A model generated the notes under the pieces. That model did no database searches and had not been told where the DNA came from. It saw only the letters and a program-made list of their open reading frames with translations. From Candidatus Omnitrophota bacterium (GTDB taxonomy: Bacteria; Omnitrophota; Omnitrophia; Omnitrophales; Aquincolibacteriaceae), in contig JAZDJU010000075.1 in NCBI GenBank assembly GCA_043803685.1, forward strand, positions 1 through 41,935: 41,935 bases of DNA. The letters run 5' to 3'. Position 1 is the stretch's first letter. Each line of letters begins with the position of its first letter. A program made the translations under genes and the position numbers. This document shows positions 10,099 through 41,935 of this stretch, piece after piece.

Positions 10099-10659
10099 CT
10101 AGGAAAGACGGGACATCGAAACCGTTGCGGCACATTTGATCACGCTGGATCCCTTGGCCGTCGCTTGAAGCGCGTATTTTTCGATGCGGAAGAGCAACTT
10201 CGAATTTTCGATGGCATAGAAGAAATTGATGATCTGGTCGATCTGCCCCTCGCATTCGAGAGTAATGCGGAAGACGTTACGATCCTTGCTCTCACCTCCC
10301 GCGGGCTTTGAATAGAGCAGATTCACGGAAGCCTGGCTGGCGATCTGCTGGACGCTCTTCAGCAGCATCAGCACCCCATCATCCGCGGACTTCGAAGGCA
10401 CCGAATAGGCTGCATAATGCTCAGCTTCTTTCATCATCCTTGCTTTTTGATCGAGAAGACGGATGCTTTTCTTGATGTTCGTCTCTGTATCATGGATCTT
10501 CTGGTCCAGGGATTGGAAGTTCCTGTAGATAGGACTAAAGACAAGCTGGTCGCCGGCCACCAATACCACGGCCGCAACCGAAAAATAGAGGATGATCTTC
10601 TCCCGTTGCGACAGGCGTTGAAACAAGCCGATCAGCTTCGCCATATCTATAAATTGCAT
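10099..10659 (-). CDS. GspM/PilO-like inner-membrane platform protein
   Basis: LSQREKIIL plus TM, coiled coil and a ferredoxin-like C-terminus (ITLECEGQIDQIINFFYAIEN); follows the PilMN-like gene. Confidence 0.75.
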   Translation of the reverse strand: MQFIDMAKLIGLFQRLSQREKIILYFSVAAVVLVAGDQLVFSPIYRNFQSLDQKIHDTETNIKKSIRLLDQKARMMKEAEHYAAYSVPSKSADDGVLMLLKSVQQIASQASVNLLYSKPAGGESKDRNVFRITLECEGQIDQIINFFYAIENSKLLFRIEKYALQATAKGSSVIKCAATVSMSRLS

Positions 10660-10680
10660 ATCCGTATTCCTCTTCCTGTG

Positions 10681-12192
10681 TTATTTGGGGACAGCGATGA
10701 TCTCAAAATCGGAGAGCTCCGTACCATCCTCCGTCCGACCCGTAATGTATTTTGTTTCTACTTTTTTGAAAAGCGGCGAATTCCCCATCTCATCGACCAA
10801 CGAGAAAATAGAAGGTTTCTCGTAGGCGGACCCCTTGAGATCGATTTTTTTTCCCGCTTCAAACCTGAGATCGGACAGATAAAGACTGTTCTCGATCAAC
10901 GAAGATATCTCCGCGAGAGATTCAAGCGCCATGCCCCGGGTTGCTAGATACGCCTTCACGGCCCGGACTTTGGTGTAGGTGCCTTCGAGCGCATCCGCTT
11001 CCTTTTTGATGGGCTCGTAACGCGCGGTGAGCTGTTGGAGGCGGACCGTTTTAGAGTAAATATGACTTGCGACCGAAAAACACACCAACCCGAGAAGCAC
11101 CATCGCCAGGATCCCGGAGCTTATGACCTGTTTCGACCGTTCGATCATGACACGGCTGAATTTACTTTCATCGGAGCTCAGATCCACCTTCAGATCATCC
11201 ACCAGAAGCCCCGGAGCCGCCGAGGACAATAAAGCCACGTTCATTTCGCGGGAATGTTCCTTTAACGCCGGAGCCACGGGCAGGACATCCCAGTCCGAAA
11301 CTTGCTTCACCGACACGTTAAAAGTCTCGCGAATGGAGACCTCGAGATCATCGAGTCCCACCGTCGCCCCTCCAAAAATAATACTGGCCGGCATTAGATC
11401 GATATTTTCACTCTGATAGGTATCGAAGGATTTCTTAAGCTCTTCGATATAGCGAACCGAATACCCTTCCCGGGCCGCTTCGAAATGCTTCGCACCGATG
11501 GAAATGCTCCGCACAAAGAGGACCGCGCCGCGAAATACGATCAGGAATTCCGAAGTGTTGGAATCGACCTGAATGATACAAACTGGAAATCGTTCATTCA
11601 TCAGGCTTGTATCTTTCCAGAAATACCGCCCAATGGCCTCCGGAGCAAAAACGATCTTTTCAAGACGAAGATTCATCTGGGAGGCAAGATCATAGTACTT
11701 CATCACGATGTTCCGGGGCACAATGATAAAGAGGACCTTCGTATAGACACTTTTAAAAACACCCAGATCGAGATAATCGAGGATGATCTCCCCCCGGGAA
11801 TAAGGCGTGTGCCGCGATGCCTGCAAACTAAGGATTTCACTGATCTCGTCGGGATCACGGGAGGGAATCTCGATGTTTCGAGTCACGACCACATTGGAAG
11901 AGATAAGACCGATCACCTGGGGACGCTTGAAATGCAGACCCTCAATGATCGTGCGGAAACGGTTCCCCAGTTCTACTTCCGGCATCCCCTGGATATTGAT
12001 GCTATGGAACTGCTCGACGCGCCTGCCTCCAAGGGCCTGCGAGGTGAAGGCCGTTACTTTCACTTCCTGCTCTTGCAGATTAAAGCAGATACACTCCTCG
12101 GCACCTGCGCTTGCATGGGACTTTTTTCGCCCCGAAGCCCCGCCCTTTTTAAAAAGTGATCCTATCGGTCCAAGACTCAATTTCACATTCAC
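10681..12192 (-). CDS. PilM-PilN fusion (GspL-like architecture)
   Basis: Actin-like PilM domain (VVTRNIEIP, IILDY, LFVRSISIG, IFGGA), TM ILAMVLLGLVCFSVA, coiled coil and PilN-like end (LYLSDLRF...LKGSA...FKKVET). Confidence 0.8.
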   Translation of the reverse strand: MNVKLSLGPIGSLFKKGGASGRKKSHASAGAEECICFNLQEQEVKVTAFTSQALGGRRVEQFHSINIQGMPEVELGNRFRTIIEGLHFKRPQVIGLISSNVVVTRNIEIPSRDPDEISEILSLQASRHTPYSRGEIILDYLDLGVFKSVYTKVLFIIVPRNIVMKYYDLASQMNLRLEKIVFAPEAIGRYFWKDTSLMNERFPVCIIQVDSNTSEFLIVFRGAVLFVRSISIGAKHFEAAREGYSVRYIEELKKSFDTYQSENIDLMPASIIFGGATVGLDDLEVSIRETFNVSVKQVSDWDVLPVAPALKEHSREMNVALLSSAAPGLLVDDLKVDLSSDESKFSRVMIERSKQVISSGILAMVLLGLVCFSVASHIYSKTVRLQQLTARYEPIKKEADALEGTYTKVRAVKAYLATRGMALESLAEISSLIENSLYLSDLRFEAGKKIDLKGSAYEKPSIFSLVDEMGNSPLFKKVETKYITGRTEDGTELSDFEIIAVPK

Positions 12193-12195
12193 TCC

Positions 12196-13290
12196 TCATG
12201 CTTCGCTTCGCGCACTTTTTTGACCCGCCTCCTGTAACTCTAGCGGGGTCATCCGCCGCGGAACTCCCATCGCCCAGGAATAGATCTTTCCTTCAATATC
12301 GGCAATAGCCTCTATTTCGAGCGTCTGCCGCTTTCTGGGCGCCGTCCCACGACTTAAGATCCGGAAATACCGGGAATTGATCCCGATCTGCTTCGTTTTA
12401 GCGATCTGGTTCAAAACACCGATATCATTATCGGTCAATTTCACGCGCTTCCCAAGCTCCGCGTTCCAATCTCCGATCTGCTTAAAAACACCATCATCCG
12501 AGGTGTTCTGTTCATGATCGATCCCCACACGGAAAACCATGATCTTATCGGCAAGAGCATCGTCCATCCCAAGCCATACCAGGACTTCCCGGGGCGCCGT
12601 ATTGATATTCACCACCCCTTCCCCATAGACCGTGATGAAGGGTCTCACCTTCTCAAAAAGCTCCGGCGTTATTCCCCGGACGAGAAGAAGTTCCTCGATC
12701 GATTCAAATTTGTAGTCTTTGCATTCGTAAGGCGTCTCAAAATCTTCATAAAAATCATCTTCGGCCCCGTATTCAGGATGGGCCAGGGAATTATCGGTAT
12801 CCCTCCAATCGGCCACACTATAGCCTATTTGATCGGCAAGTTCAGGCTCGACCCCGCCTATTTTTTGAAAAAACTCACTAAGAGACTTGGCGTCGGCGAC
12901 ATTGAGGTTGACCTTCCCTTCCTCGTCATCCACGCCGTAGTGGACTTTAAGTTCCCCGTCCTGGGTCTCCCGGTAAAAATGCGAGACGGTGTAGGTCGTC
13001 TCCCCCCCTACCGCGACATTCGAAAAATCCGTTTTCCCGCTTGTATAGGTATCGTTCTGAGAATGATAACCTTCATCTGCTTCTTTTTTTTGCCGCAGCC
13101 TGTAAAGCGTCTGAGAGATCCCCGTTTCCGAAACACCGCAAAGCCAATTCCTCACCTCAATGCGGTCGGCCAAAGAGATCTTCTGCCGGACATGCTGCCC
13201 TATCGAGACAGAAAGGATGGCAAGGATCGATATCATCCAAAGCGCCACGATGAGCAAACTACCGCGTGATGTTTGCGATGGGTATCGCAA
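12196..13290 (-). CDS. gspK: Type II secretion minor pseudopilin GspK
   Basis: RG/SLLIVALW prepilin-like N-terminus, DEEGKVNLN, ADWRD, FESIEELLLVRGI, VNINTAPREVL. Probable TTG start at 13290 after AAGGA (ORF track extends to 13431). Confidence 0.88.
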   Translation of the reverse strand: MRYPSQTSRGSLLIVALWMISILAILSVSIGQHVRQKISLADRIEVRNWLCGVSETGISQTLYRLRQKKEADEGYHSQNDTYTSGKTDFSNVAVGGETTYTVSHFYRETQDGELKVHYGVDDEEGKVNLNVADAKSLSEFFQKIGGVEPELADQIGYSVADWRDTDNSLAHPEYGAEDDFYEDFETPYECKDYKFESIEELLLVRGITPELFEKVRPFITVYGEGVVNINTAPREVLVWLGMDDALADKIMVFRVGIDHEQNTSDDGVFKQIGDWNAELGKRVKLTDNDIGVLNQIAKTKQIGINSRYFRILSRGTAPRKRQTLEIEAIADIEGKIYSWAMGVPRRMTPLELQEAGQKSARSEA

Positions 13291-13858
13291 GGGTCCTTTC
13301 GAATACATGCCGTCCGTCTTCTCCGGAACATTCAAATTCGACTTTGACCGCAGAAGGGATTTGCCCCGCATTCTCTGAAGCGTTCCACGTCTCCACCCAT
13401 TCGAATGTCTGCTTGTTTTTGATATAAACAAAATACTGGAATTTTACACGGGCGACATTTCCGAGCATCGGAACGGCTCGAATCTCTTCCTTTTGCTGGA
13501 TCTGGCTCAAATTTTCCTGCCTGCGCGCAAAGGTCCGGTGCCACTCATCCCAAAAGTAGCTGACCCTGCCGATGCCCTTGTTCAACAGCGCTCTCTTGTC
13601 CAGACCCACACGGGACGGAAAACTCAGCGATGCCTCTTGTCCGTCAAAGGGGATCCCATGAAAAAGCACCTGACTGGAAACTTCACGGTCAAGTTTCTCA
13701 AGGAAAACGCTGACATCCTCAGCCACCTCAGAGTGACTGACCCGCCGCATCATCCCGATGCCACTTCCGAACATGGCGTACAAGGCCATGCCGATCAGGG
13801 CCATAAGCGAAATGACCACCAACAATTCCACCAGCGTAAAACCGGCCTTCCGTTTCAT
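13259..13858 (-). CDS. gspJ: Minor pseudopilin, GspJ-like
   Basis: Class III signal MKRKAG/FTLVELL; C-terminal W...IPSAVKVEF typical of GspJ; directly before gspK. Confidence 0.75.
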   Translation of the reverse strand: MKRKAGFTLVELLVVISLMALIGMALYAMFGSGIGMMRRVSHSEVAEDVSVFLEKLDREVSSQVLFHGIPFDGQEASLSFPSRVGLDKRALLNKGIGRVSYFWDEWHRTFARRQENLSQIQQKEEIRAVPMLGNVARVKFQYFVYIKNKQTFEWVETWNASENAGQIPSAVKVEFECSGEDGRHVFERTLAIPIANITR

Positions 13859-13859
13859 G

Positions 13860-14270
13860 TCACGGCCCTTTGACTTTCATGACGGCACCATACCGGTCCA
13901 AGCGGTTGTCCTGCCCGGCCTCTTTCCACAGGATCTCCAGATGGATCCCATAGAGCTCGGTTAGCTTTTCCTGTTGCTGCTCCAGTGTCACTTTCCACTG
14001 ATAGGGCCGCGTCTTTCCTTCGATGGTCCCTTCGGGCGGGTTCACGTCCGGGAAATCTTCGATCAGAATGGCTTCCTTCACTTCCCAAAGTTTCTGAGCG
14101 GCCCAGTTCTGGACATCCAACCTGTTGGCATAACGCCCGTACACGGCACCGCTAAGGAGATTCGCTTGAGTGATAAAAACCGTCGCCAATCCCAACAGGG
14201 AGACGGTGATCAACACTTCAATGAGGGAAAAACCCCGCGAACTTTTTTTAGTCCCAGTTAACAATGTCAT
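13860..14270 (-). CDS. gspI: Minor pseudopilin, GspI-like
   Basis: MTLLTGTKKSSRG/FSLIEVL; EG...YQW...IHLEILW pattern. True start probably 14270, overlapping the gspG stop (ORF track 14591). Confidence 0.7.
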   Translation of the reverse strand: MTLLTGTKKSSRGFSLIEVLITVSLLGLATVFITQANLLSGAVYGRYANRLDVQNWAAQKLWEVKEAILIEDFPDVNPPEGTIEGKTRPYQWKVTLEQQQEKLTELYGIHLEILWKEAGQDNRLDRYGAVMKVKGP

Positions 14271-14682
14271 CGGGCGTCCCGGGCTGACCGTCCTTGCCTG
14301 CTGAAGACAGATCATAGTCTTGTGTCCGATGTCCTCCTGGACTTTCGTACTTATAATCCCTTCCCCAAGGGTCCACAGGCTTTTTCTCCAGATAGGGTCC
14401 ATTCCAATTCCGTGCCTCGCCCGACTTCGCCAGAAGAACATTAAGTCCCTCGCTCGTTGACGGGAACGATCCGTTATCCAGTTCATACAGTTTAAGAGCT
14501 GTCGCGATATTGGACCGGATATCCGCCTGAGCCGCCTGGACTCGCGCCTGTTCCGTTCTCCCCGAAAGCCGCGGCAACACCATGGCGACAAGCGCTCCGA
14601 TGATGATCACGACGAGCATCAATTCGATAAGCGTAAATCCCTCTTTAGACTTCAAGCTCCCCTGCTGATATAGGCTTTCCAT
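14248..14682 (-). CDS. gspG: Type II secretion major pseudopilin GspG
   Basis: EG/FTLIELMLVVIIIG, ALKLYELDNGSFP, WNGPYL, DPWG, SAGKDGQPGTPDDI; GGAGGAG RBS. Confidence 0.95.
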   Translation of the reverse strand: MESLYQQGSLKSKEGFTLIELMLVVIIIGALVAMVLPRLSGRTEQARVQAAQADIRSNIATALKLYELDNGSFPSTSEGLNVLLAKSGEARNWNGPYLEKKPVDPWGRDYKYESPGGHRTQDYDLSSAGKDGQPGTPDDIVNWD

Positions 14683-15449
14683 TTCTCCTCCAGTTCTTTA
14701 ATGGTACGCATTTGAGTGGGATAAGCAAAAGGCAATGCCGCCTCAATGCTTTTTCCATCCCTTAGTTGACGACAGAAAAAAATGAAATTATCCGAGCCGT
14801 ACGCTGTGACCAGAAAATCGACAAGAGACGCCGCTTGGATATAGAAGATATCGACCGCCGGTCTGGCGCTGACATTCCGGATATCGATGGTGGTCAAATT
14901 ATCCAGGGAAAATCCTCTTGCGTTCTCCAGATAAAATTTCATGGTCGAGCGCACGATCTTCCGCTTGGCCGGTTCCTGCCATTGGGCAACTCCCTCGTCA
15001 AGCCAGGTAGGCACTTCTCCCTGAAATCCCACATAATCACGAAAAATCAAGTGCGTGATCTCATGCGGGAGAAGCGCTTCCAAGAAACCCTCCTTCCATT
15101 CGTAGCTGACAATAGTCTTTTTTGTGTAGTCGGCATAACCCTCCGACCACCCAGCTCTTCCGGAGTGTTTCCGGAATTCCTCTTTGTTCTTGTAGATGTA
15201 AATGCGGACTCTTTTATCCCATTGCCAGAAACCCGAGCGCCGTTCGTATCCGAGGTCCTCGCCGATCTTCGTATAATACTGCTCTGCCTTCCGCAGCACC
15301 TCACCGGCAAAGGAGTCATCCCCGCCATGATAAACAATAAAATGATCGCCTCGGACCTCTTTCCAAGGCTCTCCATCCGGGGCAATAGCTGCCGTCAAGA
15401 TCCACGCGCAAAGCACGATCCAGATCCTGAAAATATTTCCTGGGTTCAT
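14652..15449 (-). CDS. Secreted zinc metallopeptidase, clan MA (gluzincin-like)
   Basis: Signal peptide; LLPHEITH (HExxH) followed by PTWLDEGVA; FYxQAxSLVDFL. Confidence 0.8.
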   Translation of the reverse strand: MNPGNIFRIWIVLCAWILTAAIAPDGEPWKEVRGDHFIVYHGGDDSFAGEVLRKAEQYYTKIGEDLGYERRSGFWQWDKRVRIYIYKNKEEFRKHSGRAGWSEGYADYTKKTIVSYEWKEGFLEALLPHEITHLIFRDYVGFQGEVPTWLDEGVAQWQEPAKRKIVRSTMKFYLENARGFSLDNLTTIDIRNVSARPAVDIFYIQAASLVDFLVTAYGSDNFIFFCRQLRDGKSIEAALPFAYPTQMRTIKELEEKWKAYISRGA

Positions 15450-15457
15450 CGGGCCTT

Positions 15458-16720
15458 TTATTTCACCATCATGTTGATCTCGAACATGGGCAGCAACATG
15501 GCGATCACGATAAATCCAACCACCAACCCCATCCCCAAGATCATGAGAGGTTCCAAAAGCGATGTCACAATGCGGGTCGCTTCATCGGCCTCCCGTTCGT
15601 AAAAATTCGCGATCTCACCCAGAGCTTCATCGAGCTTCCCCGACTCTTCACCCACACTGATGAGATTGGTCATGAAATTCGGAAAACACTTCGACGCCCT
15701 CAAACTTTTCCCGAAGGACCCGCCCTCTTTGATGTCTTTGAGACACTTGATGAGCTCGTTCTTGAGGACCGGATTGCTCACCACCGGGGTGGCGCTTTGG
15801 ATCCCGTCAATGATCGCGATCCCGCTCTTGATCAAAAGCTCCAGCGTGCGTGTGAACCTCGCGATCTGGACCTTGAGCATGAACGAACCGAAGATGGGAA
15901 GCCCGAGTACGAATCGTCCCATCGCGATGCTTCTGCGGATCTTTTCTTTCCGGAACAGCAGGATCGCCGACACAACCCCTAGCACCGCGATCCCCCAGAC
16001 CCAGGGAGAGCGCGCCCCTTCGCTTACCTGGATCAATATTCTCGTGGGAAGCGGGAGCTCTCCGCCCAATCGCGAAAAGACACCTAAAAGACGGGGCATC
16101 ACGAAAGTGAGCATAAAAATAATGGTTCCGGTGCCTGTGAGAGCCATGAGCGCGGGATAGATCATGGAAGAACGCACGCGGGAAATGATCTCTTCCTGTT
16201 TCTGACGGTATTCTGTCACACGTAAAAGGGATTGGTCCAGATTCCCGCTGAATTCGCCGGCCGAAACCAGGGCCAGATACAAGGGCGGAAAAAAAGCGGG
16301 ATATTTACTCATGGCTTGTGAGAACGGCGCTCCATTCTTGACGTCCTCGTAGAGCTGGTTCAGCATCTTCTTGAAAGCGGGATTCTCGGACTGTTCGTTC
16401 ACGATCCCGATCGCTTTGAGGATCGGTACTCCGGAACGGATAAGACTCGCCAATTGTCTCCCAAAAGCCGTGATCTCTTTACCTTTGACGCCTCCCCCAA
16501 GAACGATATGGAATCCGGATTTGCCTTTTCCCGAAGAGAAACCTCCGTGGATGAAGGGAGCACTTTCTTTTTTGTTCGCGGCGCTCGTTTGTTCGATCCG
16601 CATCGGAATGTAACCGAGCCGGGTCACCTTTTCAATGGCTTCGCCGTCGGTCGAGGCCTCGATAAGCCCTTCGATCGTTTGACCATCTTTTTCCTTAGCA
16701 CGATATTTAAAAGTCGCCAT
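15458..16720 (-). CDS. gspF: GspF/PilC inner-membrane platform protein
   Basis: FKYRA start, RQLASLIRSGVPI, AGEFSGNLD, IYP, VGEESGKLD, LLEPLMI...AMLLPMF. Confidence 0.95.
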   Translation of the reverse strand: MATFKYRAKEKDGQTIEGLIEASTDGEAIEKVTRLGYIPMRIEQTSAANKKESAPFIHGGFSSGKGKSGFHIVLGGGVKGKEITAFGRQLASLIRSGVPILKAIGIVNEQSENPAFKKMLNQLYEDVKNGAPFSQAMSKYPAFFPPLYLALVSAGEFSGNLDQSLLRVTEYRQKQEEIISRVRSSMIYPALMALTGTGTIIFMLTFVMPRLLGVFSRLGGELPLPTRILIQVSEGARSPWVWGIAVLGVVSAILLFRKEKIRRSIAMGRFVLGLPIFGSFMLKVQIARFTRTLELLIKSGIAIIDGIQSATPVVSNPVLKNELIKCLKDIKEGGSFGKSLRASKCFPNFMTNLISVGEESGKLDEALGEIANFYEREADEATRIVTSLLEPLMILGMGLVVGFIVIAMLLPMFEINMMVK

Positions 16721-16789
16721 TTTTATTTCTCACTCTAGATTGAAACGTGTTCAATGCGCTTCACTCGAGGCCTCGGACAGGCCCCCTGT

Positions 16790-19157: not shown

Positions 19158-21501
<2,344 letters not shown>

Positions 21502-23064: not shown

Positions 23065-23773
23065 TTCGAAGTGTCTCTTTAAGTTTCCAGGCAAGACTGC
23101 TATCGATCACGACTGAGCCGAGGGACAAGTAAAAGCCCAGGATCAATGTCTCATCGACCTTTTCGCTGATCTCCACCGACCGGCCAATCTTTGCGTGAAG
23201 CTTTCCTATCAAAGTTCTTTTGTGAACCTCCGAAAGCGGTGCCGCTGAAACGATCTCAACCCGGTTCACATCCTCCGGAATATTGAGCTGGCTCAAACCA
23301 TTAAAGTCCGACTCCAAAGATTCCCGAACCCATTCCGACTGCAACGATTGATGGACCTTCTCCGGCAAACTAGTCTTCAAGACCTGAAAGGTGACTTCGC
23401 GCGCTTTGCCGGTCAGCTCCTGGTTCCAGTTCTCTTCAAGAAGTTTACTGGCCGACCGTGCCCGTTCCATGATCATCTCACTTTCCTTACGAGCGCGCTC
23501 GAGATGGCCTTGTTTTTCCTTCACCCCCTCATCGATCAGTTGTTGGCGGACCTTTTCGGCGTCGGACTTGACCTTGGCGAATGTTTCGTCGTAATAGGCG
23601 TCCGCCTCCTTAACCCTCTTCTTGGCCTCCGTGAGACGGTTCTCGGATTCCTTGGTCAACGTTTCCAGACGCGAAGAAGCCTCGCTAAAATGACGCCGAA
23701 TAACCCCTTTAAGGATCAGGATCAATACTCCAAAAATAGTGATCTGGATGGTGAGTAAAAGCAGAACAGTCAT
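23039..23773 (-). CDS. atpF: F0 subunit b fused to a delta/OSCP-like C-terminal domain
   Basis: N-terminal TM, b-type coiled coil, and C-terminal VEIVSAAPLS...IGRSVEISEKVDETLILG...GSVVIDSSL typical of delta. Confidence 0.82.
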   Translation of the reverse strand: MTVLLLLTIQITIFGVLILILKGVIRRHFSEASSRLETLTKESENRLTEAKKRVKEADAYYDETFAKVKSDAEKVRQQLIDEGVKEKQGHLERARKESEMIMERARSASKLLEENWNQELTGKAREVTFQVLKTSLPEKVHQSLQSEWVRESLESDFNGLSQLNIPEDVNRVEIVSAAPLSEVHKRTLIGKLHAKIGRSVEISEKVDETLILGFYLSLGSVVIDSSLAWKLKETLRNEKFRKNH

Positions 23774-23791: not shown

Positions 23792-24019
23792 TTAAACAGG
23801 CGCATAAAGCTGGAAAAGCACCAACAAAGCGATCACGGAAATAGCGGCTCCGAATACGAGCAAAATGATCATCGCGGTAAAGATCTTGGGGGCTGCGGAG
23901 GGATTCCGGCCTAATGCCTGAATACTCGCATGCCCTCCGGCCGCAATGATCAGGGACGGTCCCAGAACAGCGATCGCAAAAATAAAAACCACCTCTAAGC
24001 CGTGTTCAATGCCGCCCAC
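23792..24019 (-). CDS. atpE: F0 subunit c-like proteolipid lacking the conserved carboxylate
   Basis: 75 aa helical hairpin with a GRNP loop; GTG start with GGAG RBS; Ala at the Asp61/Glu-equivalent position. Confidence 0.85.
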   Translation of the reverse strand: MGGIEHGLEVVFIFAIAVLGPSLIIAAGGHASIQALGRNPSAAPKIFTAMIILLVFGAAISVIALLVLFQLYAPV

Positions 24020-24266
24020 TTTTTCTCCGTTCGATAATGGCCAAGACCCGGTTAGAAAGCACCCGGACCACTCCCTGTGAAATGAGGATCTCTTGGTTGT
24101 CCACGATAATCGTACCAGAACGTAATCGACTAAGCAAAGGCTTGTGGTTCACAAGGATCTCAAAAGTGCCGCTCTTTCCTGGGAATATGACTCGCTGGGC
24201 CTTCCCTTCGAACACGACGCCCCCGGGACCGACGATGGAAAGATCAAAAGAATGCGCGAGAGCCAT
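24006..24266 (-). CDS. atpC: F1 epsilon subunit, N-terminal beta-sandwich only
   Basis: LSIVGPGGVVFEG...PGKSGTFEILVNHKPLLSRL...G...ISQGVVRV; 86 aa. Confidence 0.85.
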   Translation of the reverse strand: MALAHSFDLSIVGPGGVVFEGKAQRVIFPGKSGTFEILVNHKPLLSRLRSGTIIVDNQEILISQGVVRVLSNRVLAIIERRKSGRH

Positions 24267-36200: not shown

Positions 36201-39200
36201 AATCCGCTGATATCTTCCTCGTCGGAAAAATCGCCCAGCGCCGAATACATGACAATGACATTTTTGATCGCACCGGTCTTTTTGAAGATGACCTCGCGGT
36301 TGATATCCGCAAGTCCCCACCGCTCCGCGTCCGACTGGTCGCCTTTCGGGAACACCACCGTGATCGGGGCCTTGATCACGAACGCAGTCCCGGCCCCTAA
36401 GGTTTGAACATCCGCGTTATCAGGATCTGCCTGGGTGATCCTTAAACGGAGATCGGCTTGAAGATCTTCATAGGTTTTCGGAACACGCCAGATAGCGGCG
36501 CCGGTGTTGCCGACCGCGTTCAGGGGAAGACCGGCAGAATCGAGCGCGGGATTCCATGTTCTGGCACCAGAGTAATTGTTGGAATATTCCAGTTTCATTT
36601 TGGTGTTAGACGAAGGTCCCTTATCTTTCACCCAGGTAATTTCATAGTCGGTCCCCGCGGTAATGGTCTGCCCATTCGACGGAAGGAGATTGCTTACCAG
36701 GGCACCGCGTTTGAATTCCGTGCCTTCGCTGGAAACGTAGGTCATGCTACTGGTCAATTCGTTATTATTGATCAGAATGCTTGCCGTATTCAGCACCATA
36801 TCATCGTTCGTTCCCCCGGCCGGCCATGTATAATTGCAAGCGCCTCCTCCGCAATATGTCGCGGCCGCCACGTTGTCCGCGATCAGCACATAGTCATCCG
36901 GAAATGTCGCCGCTCCGGCAACGATACTGTAATAAATGTCAAAATTAACGATCGACCCGGTATACTGCCAGCTGATATCCATATCCGTTTCAGCGGTTCT
37001 ATTGACTCCGCCTTGAGGAACCTGGAAGGTGATCCCGCCGCGGATCGTGAATTTATCGCTCACAGCGTTCACCAACTCATATCCCGCCTCCGCGTCCTGA
37101 ACCTTGATCTTCACAAGCGATCCGATCGAGTTCGGCACTGTCCACGTATATCCCGTTGTCCCCACTCCCACCGCCACAGGGACGCCCCCGTTGATCGGCG
37201 TCGGATCCCAATTCACGCCATCCTGCGCGTAATAGATGTTCACTTCATCCACGCCCGTCCCTTGAGTCTGGCTCCACTTGATCAGATTATTGTAAGTCGC
37301 TTGCACCGTAAATTGTTGATCCAGAGTCGGAGCGTCCATTCGCAGGATCGGCAGGATCTTGAAGGTGTAAGGCGTCGTAAAAGTCGTCTCAGGATAATTC
37401 ACATCCGTGATGCGGATCTGCACGCCGTTCGTTTTCACGTCCGCGGGGATCCCGCTCGTCCAGTCGTACGTGTTCGCGCCATTCACATGCCCGCCGGAAT
37501 CCGCCACGACGTCACGCCAACCCGTTCCGTCATAAAACTCAATGTGCACGTTTGTCACTGTTCCCGTCGCGCTCCACACGATCTGACGGTTCGTATCCCC
37601 CGCATTCCACGTCACACCGCTTGCCGGACTCGTGATCTGCGTAATCTGCCCCACGATCTTGAACGTGCCGCCCGTCATCGCGGCCACTTCCGTCGGGGAA
37701 TCCTTCACGCGAACACGGAACTTCACCTGTCCGCTGATCTCGTCAGGCACCAGCCAATCATAGGTCCCCTGAACTCCTTCCGCGGTATTACTCGCCGTGG
37801 GAGGAACCGTATCCAAAACATCCGGAGCGCCAAAGCTTCCGCTCCCGCTCTTGTCAAAATCGAAAGTCACAAGCTGCCGATAACTGCCCGGATAAGTGCC
37901 CGTCGGCGTCCACTTCACATTGTAATGCTGACCCACGAACACGTGCGTCACCGTATCGTTTGGCCAATCCAGAGCGAGTGAACCGTAGATCTCGATGTTA
38001 TCGCTCGACTCTGCCTCCACCGTATCATTGCCTGCGTCCTGGACACGGACACGCACCTGATTGCCGATCTTATCCGGGATCGACCACTGATAGCAGGGCA
38101 CCGGAACGCAACCGTTCTGGCCGTTCGTCGCACTCACCGTTGCGATCAGATTCTGCGGATCGGGATAGGTCCCGCCGCTTTCCTCCCCGCCGTTCGTCGA
38201 ATAATGGAGTTTCACGTCCTGGATCGCACCGTAGGGCGTCCACTGGATCTTGTACACTGGGCCCCCGTACCTCAGCGCCACACCCACTCCCGTCGGCGCA
38301 CCCAACGTGAGAGAGCCTTTCACCTCAACGCGCCCGGGGTTCTGCGTGCCAATCACCGTCGCCTGCGATCCGGGATCCACGGCCTTCACCCGGATGCGCC
38401 CCGCATATCCTGCCGTCAGAGGCGTCGAACCGATGATGCTCCAGTCAAAATAATAATCACTCCCGTCCTTGCACCCCGGCTCGCAACCATCCGCGATATT
38501 GACTGCCACCGTGTTGATCTTGTACCCGGTCCCGGCATTCTCGGAGAAATCCCCGAGCGGAGAATAATAAACATCCACCGAGTGAATATCGCCCGTCTTC
38601 GTCCACTTGATCCGCTCCGTCGTGTTCGCATCCCACGAAACGTTATTCGTCGGATACGTCACCGTCAGCTTTGAATTGATCTTGATCTGGCTCCCCGTCC
38701 CGATTGCGATCGCTCCCACCTCATCAGCCGTAAAATTGTCGAGGTCTGTCGCAGGAGTCGTTTCATAGAACTGAACGATCCTCACCCTCTGATCCGTCGA
38801 AACAAGGTCCGCATAACCCCGGGGGATCGGGTTCCAGTCAAAAGCCGTCAGCGCGCCGCCCACACCGTTCACGTCCGTCACTCGGATCCATGTCGGGGGC
38901 GCGGCTTCAGAATTATTCGTATAATAAACATGCCATTTGTAAAGACCCGTCCCCGCCGTCTTGTTCCACGTCACCTGCGTGTTCGGATCTTCCGAGTAGA
39001 TCACCGTCCCGTTGACAGGCGACGTCACGCTTGCCGCCGCGATCACCTTGAACAGGGGACTCACGGACGCCGTCCTCAACCCGGTGTCCGGATCCTGGAC
39101 CTCCAACCGGATCCGGTAACGAGCGCCCACCAGCGTCACCGCAGGATCCACGCTCAGATCCCAATTCAAAGTGGAAGACCCGCTCGCACCGTTCCCCGTC

Positions 39201-41794
39201 TGGTCCTTCGAGCCGATCAACGTCCAGCTATCCGAAGCGTCATCAGGATCGTAATACACGTTCACCGTACGGTTCGATCCCCAAAAATTCCACGAGATCG
39301 TGTTCGTCGCAGAACTCGCCACGAGCTTCTGGTTCAACACAGGGGCCGTGAGCACCACATTCCCGGCGATCTTGAACTGAGGAGATTCCCCCTGCGATGC
39401 GTTAAAATCCATATCGATCACCTTGACCGTCACGGTATTCCCGATCACATCCGGAACATTGGTCCATGTCACCCCAGTCGCGCCGTTACCCGCAGGAACA
39501 TCCGTCGCGATCAATCCATCCCCGGGATAATAGCGGACTTCGACTTTACGGTTCGTGGTGCTCCCCGAATAGGTCCACTTGATCAGGTTCGGATAGGTCT
39601 GACCTACCAAAAGACTTGTGCTCGCGTCCGGCGTCGGCGTCACCACAACCTTCGGGCGAACTGTGAATTGGGCAGGAGCCCCAAGAAGGTCGGTATTAAT
39701 CGAGGTGTAATCATTATAAGAGATCTTGATACGGACCGTACTGTTGCGAAGGTCGGCCATCGGGGTCCACAAAAGGCTATGCCCGCCCTGTCCGCAAGCT
39801 GCCGCATCACCACCGGGCACCGTAAAATAATCCGCTCCATTCGTCGAGTACTCAACAATGCAGGTCGGAACAACATTACCGGACTTCGTACCGCTCTTCG
39901 AAACCCATTCGATCGTCTGACCGGTATCCGTATCGGTTGCGTACCAAAGAGTTGAAACCGTCGGATTGTCCAGGGAGGTAAAATTGGGACGGATCTTGAA
40001 TAGAGCGCTCAATGCCTCGAGCTGTGTGCCCGCAGGAGCGCTCAAATTGGTCATCCGGATCCTGCTTGTGTCGGAGATCTTGCGATTGGCGCCAATGATC
40101 CCTGCCACCCAGGCGTAATTGCTGACACCATTACTGCCTGAAAAATACGCGTTCTCGATCGTATAAACGTTCCCGCCCGAGTAATCCCCCGCCGTGAATG
40201 TCCCGGTCGTCGAGTATTCGATCTTGAGGTCCCCGATCGATCCCGTCTTGTCCCACTGGATCGAAGGCGTCGGCGTATTCCCAACCGTCCAGATATCCGT
40301 CACGATCGGTGACGGGATCGAAAGTTTACCGCGGATATAGCTGGCGACAGGAGAAACGCTGTTCGCGTTCGAGTTGTTATAATCTGAAACTCTGAAAAGA
40401 ACATTATTGGAAATGGTATCCAACACCGGATTCCAGGTCCACTTCTTCGCGCCGCCGCCTGCGTCATCACCATCCACACCACCCGCCGGGGTGATCTCAA
40501 CCCATGTCGGCCCCCCGGTCATCACATGGCTGTATTCAACTTTATATTTCAGAATAGCGCCCGTAGGCACCCACCCGATATCCGTCTGGTCTCCGACCCG
40601 AATGTTCGTCAGATCTCCGGAAGGCGTCACACTGTTAACGGAACCGCGGATCTGGAAGCCTCCGCCCGAGATCCCCTGGGCATTATTCGTTTTCTGAGGC
40701 GTTGGCGTCTCCGCTTTCACTTTGATCCTGGAGTTGAACCCGGCCGTTGAAAGAGGCGTGTTGGCCGGAATACTGTTCCAGGTCCAGGTGTATTCTGCAT
40801 TATCCGCGAGCGCCGACACATCGATCGGTCCCGCCGTATTGATCGGGGCGGCTTCATAGTTGGTCCCATCCGGCGCGTAATAGATATTCACGGTCTGGAG
40901 AGCGCCCTGCTTTGTAAATTTGATGTCATGAGCTTCCAGGAGTCCCCACGACTCGCTCCCGGAGCCTGTGGGCGCTGTCACATTGATCGCCGCACGGATA
41001 CAAAAAGTTTCAGTGCTGATCAAAGTCACGGCGCTGTTGTCAGGATTGACCTGTGTGATACGAAGCTTTACGTCCGCATTCAGATCATTCAAAGTTCCCG
41101 GCACGGTCGGCCAGATAAAACTTCCGTCGTTATCGGTTCCCGCGATAAGTTCATTCCATGTCGGAGGACCGCCCTGCGCGTTGTTCGTATACTCAACCTT
41201 CATCTGGGTCGTCGTGACCAACCCTTTCAGTTTCGTCCACTGGATCTCGGATGTCGTGGACCCGACCGGGATGAAAGGACCGTTAAAAACCGTAAGATTG
41301 CTGACGGACGCGCCGCGTTTGAATTCCGTACCTTCGGCGGCCACATAAAGCAGGCTGCTGGTCGCCGTGTTGTTATTGACCAGAATGCTCGCTGTATTCA
41401 GCACCGCGTCGGTATTGCTCGTTTCATCCGCCGGCCACGTATAAGAGCAGCTACCGCCCGAACAGGCGGTCGCGGCAGCGACGTTGTCGGCGATCTGCAC
41501 ATAGTCGTCTGGGAATGTTCCCGCCCCTGGCACAATGCTGTAATAAATATCAAAATTCACCATGGAACCTGTATAGGTCCATGCGATATCCATCGCCGTA
41601 TCCGCCGCCCTGTTCTCTCCGTTATCAGGTGCATCGAACGTGATGCCGCCGCGGATCGTAAATTTGGACGACATCGCATTCACAGCTTCGAATCCAAGCG
41701 CTGCGTCCTGCACCTTGATCTTCACAAGGTCGCTGATCGCGTTCGGGATCGTCCAGGTATAACCCGTCGTTCCAACACCTACCGCCACAGGCAC
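24266..41794 (-). CDS. Giant repetitive membrane-anchored surface protein (adhesin-like; >5,842 aa, N-terminus outside the window)
   Basis: Dozens of ~120-aa modules with pattern (I/V)TxPxGxxxWxxG...IxW...V.L.YS.......W..P...S...(K/R)IRI; short Cys-Cys loops; C-terminal coiled coils; TM WFIIFAILVFIGLLGVVFFFTW and a ~35 aa tail. The GTG at 41794 is not a true start. Confidence 0.9.
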   Translation of the reverse strand: MPVAVGVGTTGYTWTIPNAISDLVKIKVQDAALGFEAVNAMSSKFTIRGGITFDAPDNGENRAADTAMDIAWTYTGSMVNFDIYYSIVPGAGTFPDDYVQIADNVAAATACSGGSCSYTWPADETSNTDAVLNTASILVNNNTATSSLLYVAAEGTEFKRGASVSNLTVFNGPFIPVGSTTSEIQWTKLKGLVTTTQMKVEYTNNAQGGPPTWNELIAGTDNDGSFIWPTVPGTLNDLNADVKLRITQVNPDNSAVTLISTETFCIRAAINVTAPTGSGSESWGLLEAHDIKFTKQGALQTVNIYYAPDGTNYEAAPINTAGPIDVSALADNAEYTWTWNSIPANTPLSTAGFNSRIKVKAETPTPQKTNNAQGISGGGFQIRGSVNSVTPSGDLTNIRVGDQTDIGWVPTGAILKYKVEYSHVMTGGPTWVEITPAGGVDGDDAGGGAKKWTWNPVLDTISNNVLFRVSDYNNSNANSVSPVASYIRGKLSIPSPIVTDIWTVGNTPTPSIQWDKTGSIGDLKIEYSTTGTFTAGDYSGGNVYTIENAYFSGSNGVSNYAWVAGIIGANRKISDTSRIRMTNLSAPAGTQLEALSALFKIRPNFTSLDNPTVSTLWYATDTDTGQTIEWVSKSGTKSGNVVPTCIVEYSTNGADYFTVPGGDAAACGQGGHSLLWTPMADLRNSTVRIKISYNDYTSINTDLLGAPAQFTVRPKVVVTPTPDASTSLLVGQTYPNLIKWTYSGSTTNRKVEVRYYPGDGLIATDVPAGNGATGVTWTNVPDVIGNTVTVKVIDMDFNASQGESPQFKIAGNVVLTAPVLNQKLVASSATNTISWNFWGSNRTVNVYYDPDDASDSWTLIGSKDQTGNGASGSSTLNWDLSVDPAVTLVGARYRIRLEVQDPDTGLRTASVSPLFKVIAAASVTSPVNGTVIYSEDPNTQVTWNKTAGTGLYKWHVYYTNNSEAAPPTWIRVTDVNGVGGALTAFDWNPIPRGYADLVSTDQRVRIVQFYETTPATDLDNFTADEVGAIAIGTGSQIKINSKLTVTYPTNNVSWDANTTERIKWTKTGDIHSVDVYYSPLGDFSENAGTGYKINTVAVNIADGCEPGCKDGSDYYFDWSIIGSTPLTAGYAGRIRVKAVDPGSQATVIGTQNPGRVEVKGSLTLGAPTGVGVALRYGGPVYKIQWTPYGAIQDVKLHYSTNGGEESGGTYPDPQNLIATVSATNGQNGCVPVPCYQWSIPDKIGNQVRVRVQDAGNDTVEAESSDNIEIYGSLALDWPNDTVTHVFVGQHYNVKWTPTGTYPGSYRQLVTFDFDKSGSGSFGAPDVLDTVPPTASNTAEGVQGTYDWLVPDEISGQVKFRVRVKDSPTEVAAMTGGTFKIVGQITQITSPASGVTWNAGDTNRQIVWSATGTVTNVHIEFYDGTGWRDVVADSGGHVNGANTYDWTSGIPADVKTNGVQIRITDVNYPETTFTTPYTFKILPILRMDAPTLDQQFTVQATYNNLIKWSQTQGTGVDEVNIYYAQDGVNWDPTPINGGVPVAVGVGTTGYTWTVPNSIGSLVKIKVQDAEAGYELVNAVSDKFTIRGGITFQVPQGGVNRTAETDMDISWQYTGSIVNFDIYYSIVAGAATFPDDYVLIADNVAAATYCGGGACNYTWPAGGTNDDMVLNTASILINNNELTSSMTYVSSEGTEFKRGALVSNLLPSNGQTITAGTDYEITWVKDKGPSSNTKMKLEYSNNYSGARTWNPALDSAGLPLNAVGNTGAAIWRVPKTYEDLQADLRLRITQADPDNADVQTLGAGTAFVIKAPITVVFPKGDQSDAERWGLADINREVIFKKTGAIKNVIVMYSALGDFSDEEDISGLVDISAQPDDTNIVWQWPMIPVDANLTAGFSGKMKVKADDPQQQRGISVGISTGGFQVSGSINNVTPTNATDLVVGGFKQIRWEPLGSFLKFKVEYSYVMSGPPSWIEITPAGGVDGIADGIGRTWTWGPSASPMIIPDTISNKVIFRISDYNNLNTYRDSNYVNPTHSNIIKGTLDLQTPDDSPQTFYIGDQIPISWTKLGTIGNLLIQHTAKGDSSDLVTLDPSFPPGNDGTNSLNPVWTTSTALKVSEDYRVKVSNVGAPAGTELSDISTATFGLRPKITGITSPLLSGLSVWYVGEQRTITFSATSSTKPDGSLPKVRFQYLVQGGSWTDVVYETGHVQAGQPVKFDCANGVNNFLWADGVADEFSEIVKIKIFFDEYPNDTNASMESATFAIRPQITLDPSINTDLRIIAFSNNNPIAFTYTGTYLTTVNVLYDLNNANTFAGTIHAGLSVSNNAGSTEWDDVPDVNGFVKIRVIDTANPNVKVDSGNFKIIGGLTLTKPVSPMTWMAKSTTNDIEWSFNGTIANVKIYYDLNEGLGVDGIAGSGDEWDTNTPLTTVAQTGPTGVMTYRWSPMPGKVTNKGVIKITDANNETDVYSVGGTQQKTLPLAAAQLFKIGAPFDITDPENGHTAYSEEEYTILWNNYLVTGVTKVALYYTNNSGDPSPTWNLITDNAQNTGTYVWNPVPRALADLNNTNQIRITQFDPLNEAGTAIESEGDFAILGALTVTNPSVGNESWGVNVPQRIKFTKKGDLQAADVWYSYDGAANHYVKITGTPVNIADGCEPGCKDGADYFYDWPLNPATTALTSGFTGRVKVKAVTPNTQTAVEGISSVFEVKGTVTLIAPTGHEVDPGTLAMEVGDVYTIRWQKFGAVDNVEIHFSTNGGLSYPDGDYPTGNRIYSGPSNINPQGADYTFPWDVPDRIGNDVMIRIRHRENTNVKNDPGLVKAFRIKGKLALTQPENAGISWAVGSTPKIQWTSTGTFTPVELHYSRNGTFGAGDVFVVKPDTIVTNCTPQVGQITCNGEANFEIEDQISAAAKVRIRGTGTQADVQYVSTNPFKIVGALDITAPESGQIWYVGETNKNITWDASGTITNVNIGYKTSFAGACNYTNIVSGDAGHASGSNTYVWPNIADERTETAYICIQDVAFPEIVNVSAAPFKIRPQITVTTPVSGTRVKVGSDNPDLIKFSVTGTKTQLVDIVYSENNGTDGYPHTIASDVVVTEGIAGVDWNDVADTITPTAKIKVVDKASTGEVVFGLSPDTFKIVGSVVLTAPPEAPPAEKIMLKKGQNYLIQWDKTGSFADVTIWYSIGGGAFNNQIKDQTPAVNKQFLWSNVPNTTSSNIVVRISDYTDPETVSFSAPIAIQSTLNITSPDNGEVWAVGESEDVVWTTDGTTLRVKLEYSTNGGGETGNWQDVIGAENILNGGVKAWTIPNSISNTVKVRVIDIADTDNWNESAETFKIRPNFRILSPNGNADPGLTDKLTVCPDPCTNKTPISWSVAGTVTTVKLQYSVDGGAYTDIPGAVSLDSSGYIDTPLVKSWDWAVPDSISDEVRVRVVYESDTTNYESSDYDFTIQGQLAFNPALPEAGDGTWYVGETKTITWAKTGTVPLIKLQYSKTSDTTGFIDIDTNLGGTTYPWVIPSDLSGTNPIDPSVWIRAVNMNADKPTIMAVSGPIDLRGQFMITSPIVTDQWEVDSSHAIQWTPYGTMGTIKLEYSTDDFVTPMPVTGPGGESAANLAAGVHEVPQSFTWKIPTNISNNVKIRISTNTVGQADVTASPVFKIVGGYKILTPNGAANQYFEVDGSTPITWERHGAIANAKLEYSTNGFSNEDEVFPIITVPGSDGSYSWDPVPNAIGKNVKIRISDPLYNGTTVFTSSDVSDAVFEIRGAIDIDFPVGGEIFLITDDQTVQWTKHGSMPAVKVEYDSDPADAFDFTDPATGDPNYIKNASGTSASSVAGTSFSWRIPDRKSLNKTRIKITNLSDPTNVFTVTPFFTVRGGFSWIDPVTTDQVFEVGSTGVLRWSTFGTIPNIDLQYSTNNDFSYNPMLVNNNPVTPATAVLNENTFNWIVPDTISKNVFLKIKDSTDPDAVTRTVKVRVAGKIYIDQPDSTQRWGVGDTKNITWHMDGSISNLKIEYSINDGATWIDPPISASIVGSVGTKSWLIPAFVTPTAKIRISDLITDSGATPAVTDAFKIVGSFSFTAPANGDTWYVTEGGIANPTRNIVWATQGLVPSVNLRYSKTGAAPWTLINTGGPIADGGSGGSYAWTVPDAISSSVKILIEDSADNETNLTSPAFSIAGDFQITAPAGAADKWGVNSIKNITWLKNGTDWSNDLVKKNMVYLFYSTDGTTGPWVPILNPLRGDYYVSNTGLFAWTIPDNLSPNSRIQIQNVDGPSVMRNSPANFKIMARFDVTAPDGGETVMAGPTTTITWNKWGTGVNNVRIDLALNGDDAEPTFDKLIAANTANDGSHPWAVSVDHVSPTAKIRISDLNDIDTANTSATSFIIRATFTMDPNIGSVPVEIGETYNIFWTKQGNIPNVKLTYSPDNFFSDTRMIEPTADGIVPNTDSCTSNPTMGCYSWVVPDIEDNKDVGVKLKVADPNDLDAEAISNVFSIIPKFRITFPNGNANSALTDKLKVGTPYTITWTSSSAQLKTPQVMLAYTTTGGAPYDKAITTTENDGSYNWVTANGGVPDDISNQVKIRVMDASDSVATDSSDFNLQIVSDFVVSAPNGGATYEVGDPFTIAWTNKGRVETVGLSYGTAGVDFASPVVIDNAYDNGSDFGNTYSWTIPNAIGTNVRVRVRSTTDEGFDISDTSFRVRGKLVSTLPSSTDKLPIGQSFTLQWTSYGTMPNVKLHYDTANGTGGFPNEISASTPNCTPSAPALTCVGSFVWNNIPDTPAAQARVRITDARSEESDVLGISDAFQIVGNLTVVTPNGGQDWRVNESRNIVWTWGGSIPVVKLYYTKEVGDPETVNWTEIDSGTVKDYSGDGLQQNGANNTIQRQYAWSVPDDISPTVRVKIADATNVGVYDVSNATFKIRGDFVVTSPNGNANIDLAERWVTSIFATGEGQNITWTANGTIPNVKLEYSSDDFGSDIHLIDASAPNCTPSGPGVPCTGSYYWEIPDAVLKDQGGKYVGPNLMKVRISDINDAEVTDVSDNSFKIDYYQVKWVIRDLGTYNLMSDLTVSEVKSTDPNLGIWQESGLAAAQPDPDGYTRIQPTPAGVWAATWSKTGYGDMLQLASLSKNNPLQDPPLALDPTYLLLMETTAVHIYISESRYTYDPVSDRLDVVVWLSRDGSLMTGTVNARMYIYKGVDLVTGGPIDLAKIGTDTGMFGATLTAVSDPNGAYKLQAGLTYVVKAQTQIASQVPNNVWYQTPNSFEITTPSKLQEVLDEVHRVLDKPMSEVAEELNQTLANQTQVIQETLAEQTETIQEEMANQTNLIQTAVNDFTESVQESLVALEEGAKASQEAGEQLKATAERFSWKTSSTPNPALAGDTVTIAAQGLPGLFPVLSIYNFANKVVVASGALVETKSNPGNYSFTFKADPGTFQAGKAYTFIVSEDTTGGLVAGSGFVESTSLTTIAGLVASAPGAEEAAKKALDIVKGIEAAMAKGGADVDGVKDQIYKLKTVIEDLPGKFVDLMKKDGTMGDVKNSVNAISTQLTTLAGDQGYDISQLMSQAISSAPSIKDLRKKSDAIRDGVDIVQKTIEAKLGGSEEPLVLVSYTSGSVVIRVIVANPSEKKTQEVPVKVYLPQETKPDDVMDKGDLDFGYDEKKAVYFVYKDKVLLAPKETRVFEVELKDIWFIPDETLNGLRTQTEKIMKRIEGTPYFDQAKLIADTIFGRLDRVATSQADESVNKELHIGLYRANLIVIDNVKADIAKLEKMLVAVGAPPAPELLAESKLNLKTPSRATTWFIIFAILVFIGLLGVVFFFTWQSQVKETHEFPEDKDGTKPSGSDGDSGQKPPNAK

Positions 41795-41801
41795 CCCCCC
41801 C

Positions 41802-41935
41802 GTTGATCGGCGTTGGATCCCAATTGACGCCGTCCTGGGCGTAATAAATGTTCACCTCATCAACACCCGTCCCCTGCGTCTGCGTCCACTTGATCAGGTT
41901 ATTGTAAGTCGTCCCGACCGAGAACTGCTGGTCCA
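41802..41935 (-). CDS. Upstream, frameshifted continuation of the giant protein gene
   Basis: Reads DQQFSVGTTYNNLIKWTQTQGTGVDEVNIYYAQDGVNWDPTPIN, nearly identical to the in-frame internal copy at ~37190-37323; separated from the main ORF by a G8 tract. Confidence 0.85.

Follow-up and report, generated by a model that had tools for sequence, protein, structure and literature searches.

An F-type ATPase gene set, probably ion-uncoupled, joined to a fibre-anchor gene and secretion/pilus genes in Omnitrophota

What does a set of F-type ATPase genes do when it lies between the gene for a giant surface protein and a block of secretion genes, and encodes no path for ions? The question is raised by a 41,935-nucleotide (nt) stretch from a Candidatus Omnitrophota bacterium (GenBank assembly GCA_043803685.1, contig JAZDJU010000075.1), analysed at its full length and hereafter called the window. 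All genes of the finding lie on its minus strand. A 5′-incomplete fibre gene (24266..41935) is followed by the genes for epsilon (24006..24266), subunit c (23792..24019), a b-delta fusion (23039..23773), alpha (21520..23094), gamma (20653..21501) and beta (19254..20684), and then by genes resembling those of type II secretion systems (T2SS) and type IVa pili (T4aP). Our answer, to which we assign a probability of roughly 0.55, is that these genes specify no ATP synthase but an F-type rotary ATPase that hydrolyses ATP, is uncoupled from ions and is dedicated to an envelope apparatus of Omnitrophota as a built-in part. The ATPase would comprise alpha3beta3, gamma, a short epsilon, a c-ring and a b-delta peripheral stalk, with no subunit a. 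The rest of the apparatus would be a long fibre of immunoglobulin (Ig)-like repeats on a C-terminal single-pass anchor, and a T2SS/T4aP-like pseudopilus machine under the control of cyclic di-guanosine monophosphate (c-di-GMP).

The genes are tightly packed. The TAA stop codon of the fibre open reading frame (ORF; 24268-24266) overlaps the epsilon ATG (24266-24264) to give TAATG on the minus strand; this junction at 24264-24268 had been noted in the original prediction, made from the letters alone, and re-reading the strand bore it out. Epsilon and c overlap by 14 nt, an 18-nt gap separates c from b-delta, b-delta overlaps alpha, a second 18-nt gap separates alpha from gamma, and gamma overlaps beta. 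The previously proposed order, atpC-E-F-A-G-D with overlaps or 18-nt gaps, was confirmed by the ORFs and by family matches. In the window, gspE begins 280 nt past beta.

This arrangement recurs in related loci and is therefore far beyond chance. A scan of one genome per species gave 103 confirmed gamma relatives, and 80 loci were kept. The gamma family is sharply bounded, with 105 relatives at 37-86% identity and the 106th and last match at 25%. Counting only loci with enough flank to show the gene concerned, alpha is present in 68/68, beta in 68/68, b-delta in 60/60, c in 50/53 and epsilon in 49/51; one locus (L003) has a cut epsilon and no c. A fibre/anchor homologue lies directly upstream of epsilon in 44/47 loci, or 45/47 after a check with hidden Markov models (HMMs) located the anchor at the cut start of L066. 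Downstream follow gspE (60/61), gspF (51/54), the MA peptidase (44/53), gspG (44/52), gspJ (43/51) and gspK (41/48). The fibre gene is separated from epsilon by a median of 16 nt, and epsilon from c by a median of 2 nt; the synteny holds down to ~40% gamma identity. The linkage to giant and T2SS genes that the original prediction implied is thus a conserved one, for the fibre/anchor gene and for gspE alike. Titles of the loci are mostly Omnitrophota, with some Planctomycetia/Planctomycetales, uncultured bacterium, PVC group and Deltaproteobacteria. Gamma relatives that bear a lineage name are Omnitrophota/Omnitrophica, and betas sampled from loci with other titles group inside the same Omnitrophota beta clade.

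Both halves of the ion path were reported missing at the outset, and both absences hold. The Pfam model for subunit a, ATP-synt_A, matched none of the window proteins tested and 0 of the 135 unassigned ORFs of ≥100 aa (91 + 44) in the 80 related loci. Subunit c (75 aa, GTG start; PF00137, 27.6 bits) has Ala in the column aligned to E. coli D61 and to the Glu of solved c subunits. Among 56 c sequences from the loci this column holds Q in 22, E in 20, A in 6, T in 3, S in 2, V in 2 and F in 1, and an acidic residue is thus missing in 36. The window's own clade (11 rows) has small residues only. On the alpha+beta tree E and Q alternate between close relatives; across its 50 rows the E/non-E state changes at least nine times, with at least five changes forced by well-supported branches. 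The c protein itself remains constrained. A rough estimate of its ratio of nonsynonymous to synonymous substitution (dN/dS) comes to ~0.16 for lineages with a small residue in this column, 0.09 for those with Q and 0.19 for those with E, and its LGRNPS loop, which faces gamma and epsilon, is invariant. As far as sequences can tell, the carboxylate is dispensable while c stays under purifying selection. The toggling of a residue essential for ion transport suggests that the c protein is kept for another role. One related locus (L075:988-1498) carries two c genes in tandem, each with Gln at the carboxylate column.

The catalytic sites of F1 are intact, judged by their motifs. Walker A and GERxREG of beta are kept in 73/73 relatives; in alpha, the Walker A GDRxTGK(T/S) is found in at least 67/72 and SVSR, in the region of the Arg finger, in at least 71/72. 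Solved canonical F1 chains match the window proteins with 385-479 bits (betas) and 369-470 bits (alphas). The true start of alpha may be later than listed. Its N-terminus (22950-23094, minus strand) carries a lineage-specific SEKITDP-like repeat insertion ahead of the beta-barrel, and is short and unconserved across the whole family; in canonical enzymes this N-terminus binds delta.

Epsilon (86 aa) comprises the beta-sandwich domain only and matches Pfam ATP-synt_DE_N alone. Of 52 epsilon ORFs, 51 measure 74-103 aa and one is cut by a contig end; as the E. coli protein has 139 aa, the inhibitory C-terminal helical domain is missing family-wide. Delta is present only as its C-domain, fused to b; the delta N-domain is absent, and there is no separate delta. 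A structure model of b-delta (predicted local distance difference test, pLDDT, 81.9) shows one ~135-residue helix that begins with an N-terminal transmembrane (TM) segment, followed by an alpha/beta domain. This delta-like C-terminal domain superposes on delta subunits with a root-mean-square deviation of 1.1-1.8 Å over 61-69 columns, and the whole model resembles the V-type stalk subunit E. All 38 of the b-delta members searched match delta, alternate-b and b/delta-fusion models. With gamma, epsilon and c on one side and the b-delta stalk on the other, rotor and stator are both present. Canonical F1Fo has homologues of alpha, beta, gamma, the epsilon N-domain, c and b; it differs in having subunit a, a conserved carboxylate, the delta N-domain and the epsilon C-domain, and in lying outside any surface-apparatus operon.

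The N-ATPases offer a comparison for the stalk, sharing a b with a delta-like C-terminus and the lack of a separate delta; the corresponding model, TIGR03321, matches at full length in 38/38. N-ATPase genes are ordered atpDCQRBEFAG, and the window order follows from this if beta is shifted to the last place and Q, R and a are dropped. The N-ATPase models for alpha, beta, gamma and b score far under their cut-offs here (alpha 466.7<750.5; beta 501.9<752; gamma 27.8<282; b 34.4<224.7). The ORF inventory of the window and loci holds no AtpQ, AtpR or subunit a, AtpQ and AtpR not having been searched with their own models.

Could this still be a genuine ion-translocating F-type ATPase or synthase, with subunit a encoded elsewhere and the fibre and gsp genes adjacent through operon history? 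Alpha and beta do pass the NCBIfam cut-offs for atpA (509.5 vs 484) and atpD (555.3 vs 463), the c-ring Glu is kept in the 20 relatives noted above, and the atpB searches covered the window and the 80 loci. We consider this very unlikely, given the Ala in the window, the non-acidic column in most relatives, the E/Q alternation between close relatives, the truncated epsilon, the lack of subunit a throughout the 80 loci and a synteny kept to ~40% gamma identity. It also fits poorly with the separation of 'respiratory' from 'symbiotic' ATPase clades in those parts of Seymour et al. 2023 (Nat Microbiol, PMC10066038) that were available.

That the locus is the decaying, non-functional remnant of an ATP synthase operon is more improbable still, to the point that we give it hardly any weight. 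Such decay would account for the combined loss of subunit a, the delta N-domain, the epsilon C-domain and the c carboxylate, and some related clusters contain selfish elements. These are all that the gaps in the ATPase block hold: GIY-YIG, HepT/nucleotidyltransferase, an IS200-type transposase and a 23S IVS protein. Gene order is unbroken by the insertions (L057:428-745, L068:9629-9952, L069:1622-1951, L066:1540-3002, L073:6874-7407 and L070:2218-2562). All six ATPase genes of the window are intact, however, catalytic motifs are conserved, dN/dS of c lies at 0.09-0.19, and the order is conserved in dozens of species.

Phylogeny sets the complex apart from housekeeping enzymes. We built trees from 150 beta representatives, taken from an exhaustive search and labelled by NCBIfam. 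The Omnitrophota betas form one clade in all three trees: 24/24 in a quick LG+G4 tree (92 rows), 12/12 in a quick LG+C20 tree (56 rows) and 12/12 in a careful LG+C20 tree (56 rows), the last with support of 100/100. This clade lies outside the canonical core (95/88). Nesting of beta inside the housekeeping synthases, named at the outset as the outcome that would speak against a repurposed motor, was not seen in these trees. The two betas that are most clearly N-like cluster with the canonical ones and not with the Omnitrophota clade. The earlier claim that this is no ordinary ATP synthase was therefore upheld on several counts: no subunit a, a dispensable carboxylate, a short epsilon, a conserved fibre/gsp linkage and a separate beta clade.

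Are the Omnitrophota genes then members of a known repurposed family? The nearest precedents are the F1-like ATPases of mycoplasmas, Type 2 (the G1-ATPase of Mycoplasma mobile gliding) and Type 3. In the careful tree, Omnitrophota betas fall together with those of Type 3 and other divergent ones in a group of weak support (80/95), with deeper nodes below 50. A single clade of Omnitrophota, Type 2 and Type 3 betas gave p-AU 0.176 in the approximately unbiased (AU) test, which neither rejects nor demonstrates it; long-branch effects are a risk. The NCBIfam models for Types 2 and 3 (MMOB1660/1670, MSC_0619/0618) remain under their cut-offs (394.6<600; 419.5<850; 285.6<520; 384.8<570), and the M. 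mobile G1-ATPase beta in the PDB scores 333.8 bits, compared with 385-479 for canonical betas.

Organization of the Mycoplasma systems is parallel in some respects and different in others. According to the portions of the literature available, they have taken over an F1 alpha/beta/gamma/epsilon set for a surface-protein system, are encoded directly after surface-protein genes and have a reduced alpha N-terminal helix, as F1-like X0 ATPases. The Type 3 ATPase is described there as encoded just after the MIB-MIP surface genes, whose function needs the beta Walker A lysine (PMC12994834) and thus ATP hydrolysis. For its partner MMCAP2_0577, a signal peptide, globular domains outside the cell and TM helices at the C-terminus are described (PMC12994834; PMC3369863). 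In the same accounts, the Mycoplasma clusters are without c and b-delta, and their membrane sector consists of a 3-TM and a 12-TM protein without known homologues. The Omnitrophota locus, in contrast, keeps the Fo-derived c and b-delta, with only subunit a gone, and its ORF content shows no multi-TM ORF between the fibre gene and beta comparable to the 3-TM/12-TM X0 proteins. With c and b-delta kept, the system may work like Type 3 by analogy but is no member of it.

We next consider the gene in front of epsilon. The fibre ORF (24266-41794) encodes 5,842 aa, of which aa 1-5036 (26687..41794) form 47 tandem Ig-like repeats of ~95 aa each; one of these repeats matches Pfam Kre9_KNH. Reading continues 5′ of the listed GTG start in another frame to the end of the window, which makes the protein at least 5,889 aa. 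The two frames meet at a run of eight G (G8; 41794..41801, minus strand), which carries an extra G relative to the in-frame paralogous copy inside the gene (GGGGGC at ~37184) and so shifts the frame by +1. The region 5′ of the ORF start was tried as a separate gene and rejected: it aligns with the internal paralogous segment, with a one-G frame difference, at 87% mean column identity in a two-row DNA alignment. The G8 run may stem from an error of sequencing or assembly, or it may be a phase-variable tract, prone to slippage, within the gene of a surface protein. Within the gene, a segment of ~1,450 aa is duplicated (32804-41770; aa 9-2997), aa 9-1445 and aa 1546-2997 being 39.6% identical over 1,519 columns.

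The repeats are followed by a conserved non-repeat base of ~800 aa (aa 5037-5842; 24269..26686), which holds the sole TM-like segment of the protein, strongly conserved and close to the C-terminus (aa ~5782-5810; 24365..24451). The C-terminal ~480 aa align without gaps over 36 relatives. In a model of the last 510 aa (pLDDT 73.8), two beta-sandwiches with a helical bundle between them are followed by three helices, the TM helix and a disordered tail. For this model Foldseek gave matches of a generic Ig/MG-like kind only, and no known family could be assigned; the ESM Atlas gave one weak hypothetical Omnitrophota cluster (0.78). We call the last part (aa ~5595-5842; 24269..25012), with a beta-sandwich, three helices, one TM helix and a cytoplasmic tail, the anchor module. 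Its TM helix, TTW..IF.I..F.GLL..V.FFTW, is conserved far above the TM helix of b, and the tail behind it commonly reads AK(K/R)(S/A)AFPE, with HEFPE in the window. On this conservation and the structure model, the conserved ~250-aa C-terminus of the fibre is a predicted single-pass inner-membrane anchor.

Fibre size varies between species. The original prediction spoke of a giant gene; the linkage to a fibre stands, the gene is incomplete in the window, and giant size is not universal, since anchor-module proteins not flagged as partial measure 1,226-1,827 aa in some species. In seven loci the anchor is an ORF of its own, covering the last 258-296 aa, directly before epsilon and with a hydrophobic start that looks, by eye, like a signal peptide. 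A further 26 clusters of 217-324 aa appear to be free-standing anchors or fragments. The free-standing anchors of the seven loci indicate that the constant partner of the ATPase genes is the anchor and not the size of the fibre, and their signal-peptide-like starts point to a topology with the body in the periplasm and the tail inside. Mirror-tree partial correlations across 31 species, a lead at most, are 0.52 for anchor-GspE, 0.47 for anchor-c, 0.34 for anchor-b-delta, 0.27 for anchor-epsilon and 0.19 for anchor-gamma. Inspection by eye revealed no covariation between the E/Q state of c and the anchor TM helix or tail.

On the other side of the ATPase genes, the same strand encodes a GspE/PilB-type ATPase that has an MshEN domain at its N-terminus and a PilZ domain at its C-terminus (16790..18973), a GspF/PilC platform protein (15458..16720), a Peptidase_MA_2 metalloprotease with a HEITH motif (14652..15449), the major pseudopilin GspG (14248..14682; 139.8 vs a cut-off of 88.85) and three minor pseudopilins. 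The latter are GspI-like (13860..14591; the listed ORF is over-extended, with the N-methylation motif at aa 116-139), GspJ-like (13259..13858) and GspK-like (12196..13431). A PilM-PilN fusion (10681..12192) and a GspM/PilO-like protein (10099..10659) end the block, and an ExeA-like AAA ATPase (6036-6899), a GspC/B-like protein (5401-6174) and a secretin (3570-5414) are encoded nearby, also on the minus strand. This confirms the gspE-F-G-I-J-K-PilMN-PilO series and the exeA/gspC/secretin group (3570-6899) as first described. The peptidase also named there is present and lies between gspF and gspG, yet it is a Peptidase_MA_2 metalloprotease and not a prepilin peptidase, and no GspO/PilD was found in the window. 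It may process the fibre or the pseudopilins. The T2SS-type parts found are thus GspD, E, F, G, I, J, K, C and M/L-type; as most gsp proteins other than GspG fall under equivalog cut-offs, we term the system T2SS/T4aP-like.

Regulation by c-di-GMP is suggested throughout the block, because the window's GspE carries MshEN and PilZ and because small MshEN ORFs occur elsewhere. We found 38 of these (~150-190 aa) between beta and gspE in 35 loci (for example L008:12268-12738), with doubled copies in L012, L048 and L056. The small gene is missing in the window's clade: it is absent from the window, L001 and L002, whose GspE-type proteins measure 727-733 aa. About a dozen relatives (L005, L006, L008, L013-L015, L017, L023, L032, L035, L072 and L073) have sensor histidine kinases (CHASE, PAS, Cache), response regulators or CheW/CheA-like genes after gspE or gspF, and pepMA and gspG are missing or displaced in most of them.

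Such tight linkage to secretion-type genes, and a very long exported substrate, raise the alternative that the complex is an export ATPase. The FliH-FliI-FliJ export complex is an F1-type ATPase with gamma-like and b/delta-like partners on a secretion machine, and FliH is homologous to b plus delta. By this account an export or assembly gate would be the target of gamma, with b-delta as a FliH-like tether and the c-ring as a static membrane scaffold; the complex would supply the energy for inserting, unfolding or exporting the fibre protein, or for building the pseudopilus, and no load would be turned. The single fused b-delta stalk protein and the dispensable c carboxylate would suit it. Against it, the full rotor set of gamma, epsilon and c with its invariant contact loop is kept, which argues for rotation; a GspE/GspF pair is already there for pilus assembly; and the signal-peptide-like start of the separate anchor suggests ordinary Sec export. 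FliI is moreover a homohexamer of one subunit, and the export complex has no c-ring. FliI/SctN models score 160-190 bits here, compared with >500 for atpA/atpD. We regard the export account as unlikely.

We therefore return to a rotary, ion-uncoupled ATPase working within the envelope apparatus. ATP hydrolysis would turn gamma, epsilon and the c-ring against the b-delta stator without moving ions, and the work would be passed within the membrane to the anchor module. The anchor may occupy the former place of subunit a, or it may ride on the rotor. The fibre could thereby be tensioned, retracted or turned, or its deployment through the secretin gated, during attachment to prey or host.

Several observations weigh against this scheme. 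The physical coupling of the ATPase to the fibre or anchor is something we infer, as is the export, rotation or retraction of the giant protein put forward in the original prediction, and the c-ring would have to pass on its work with no membrane partner on the stator side. For the 20/56 relatives that retain Glu, ion coupling through a subunit a encoded elsewhere is possible. Two loci (L012 and L026) have b-delta-alpha-gamma-beta without epsilon, c or anchor in the locus, and in a third (L061) the upstream Ig-repeat ORF is without the anchor. As the window ends inside the fibre gene, the upstream neighbour of the fibre is out of view. The signal-peptide-like starts were judged by eye, and the dN/dS values for c are rough, with dS of ~1.3 close to saturation. 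In L012 and L026 the b-delta-alpha-gamma-beta genes come after a TPR protein, in L026 after exeA-gspC-secretin-TPR; the joint absence of epsilon, c and anchor there hints that these three travel as a unit.

Elsewhere in the window, a PAS histidine kinase (7481-8938) is encoded on the strand opposite to the block. Two ORFs have no Pfam match: one of 170 aa (1222-1734, plus strand) and one of 226 aa (1854-2534, minus strand), the latter with a signal-peptide-like start and a Thr/Lys-rich tail at its end. A promoter scan gave 9 promoter-like sites against 9.0 expected, with no clear intergenic terminator, and searches for RNA features gave 0 Rfam matches and 0 tRNAs.

Parts of this picture have been published. 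In those sections of Seymour et al. 2023 (PMC10066038) that were accessible, F-type ATPase and T4aP genes of Omnitrophota are reported within 10 kb of each other on 57/66 contigs, alpha clusters with Mycoplasma types 2/3, and a function in attachment and motility is proposed. The same paper describes such an ATPase beside T4aP genes in V. archaeovorus LiM, for which a limonene culture and a proteome set, PXD025008, are named in PMC12583861. The original prediction had allowed for such reports, and its description of a new machine was overstated, since this co-location is in print. The window agrees with the 'symbiotic' locus outlined there, a non-respiratory F-type ATPase of Omnitrophota that has pilus/secretion genes no more than 10 kb away and is proposed to serve attachment to larger cells: its relatives are Omnitrophota, its beta lies outside the canonical core and gspE follows closely on beta. 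The text of Seymour et al. contains 0 occurrences of c-ring, atpB or atpE and none of subunit a or c, although its supplementary tables may hold subunit lists, and it handles giant ORFs as a trait apart from the ATPase. Beyond it, as far as that text extends, our analysis adds the missing subunit a, the dispensable carboxylate, the anchor module and the direct junction of fibre/anchor and epsilon.

A further report, West-Roberts et al. 2023 (bioRxiv 10.1101/2023.11.21.568195), links giant genes to T2SS-like loci and pilZ genes; in the part of it that was available, 'F-type' has 0 occurrences and the sole match to 'ATPase' is the abbreviation HATPase_c. A 2026 preprint (10.64898/2026.06.07.730766) gives, in its accessible portion, F1Fo alpha/beta in 125/176 genomes and gamma in 30/176 at strict thresholds, and so low a count for gamma fits a divergent complex. 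Our literature search, which covered the texts of papers, found no paper on an 'F1-like ATPase' in Omnitrophota and none further on F-ATPases lacking subunit a or the carboxylate.

Repurposed F1 ATPases have so far been worked out in mycoplasmas only, where the membrane sector is unrelated to Fo. A c-ring and stalk without an ion path would be a natural test of what a c-ring does beyond ions, and of how torque is handed over to a surface structure. E/Q/small-residue toggling at the c carboxylate offers a sequence marker with which other ion-uncoupled rotary ATPases may be found. More tentatively, and with the odds against it, this may be a third independent re-use of an F-type ATPase: a rotary motor with c-ring and b-delta, a single-pass anchor in place of subunit a, acting as a winch or swivel that works an Ig-like fibre (1,200 to >5,900 aa) beside a secretin/pseudopilus machine to seize prey. 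If so, it would be a living analogue of the recruitment of F/V-type ATPases to secretion machines. For Omnitrophota, the locus joins two traits, very large surface proteins and 'symbiotic' ATPase/pilus loci, which the available text of the Seymour and West-Roberts papers treats apart. It thereby provides a concrete and testable parts list for how these ultra-small, uncultured bacteria may attach to their prey.

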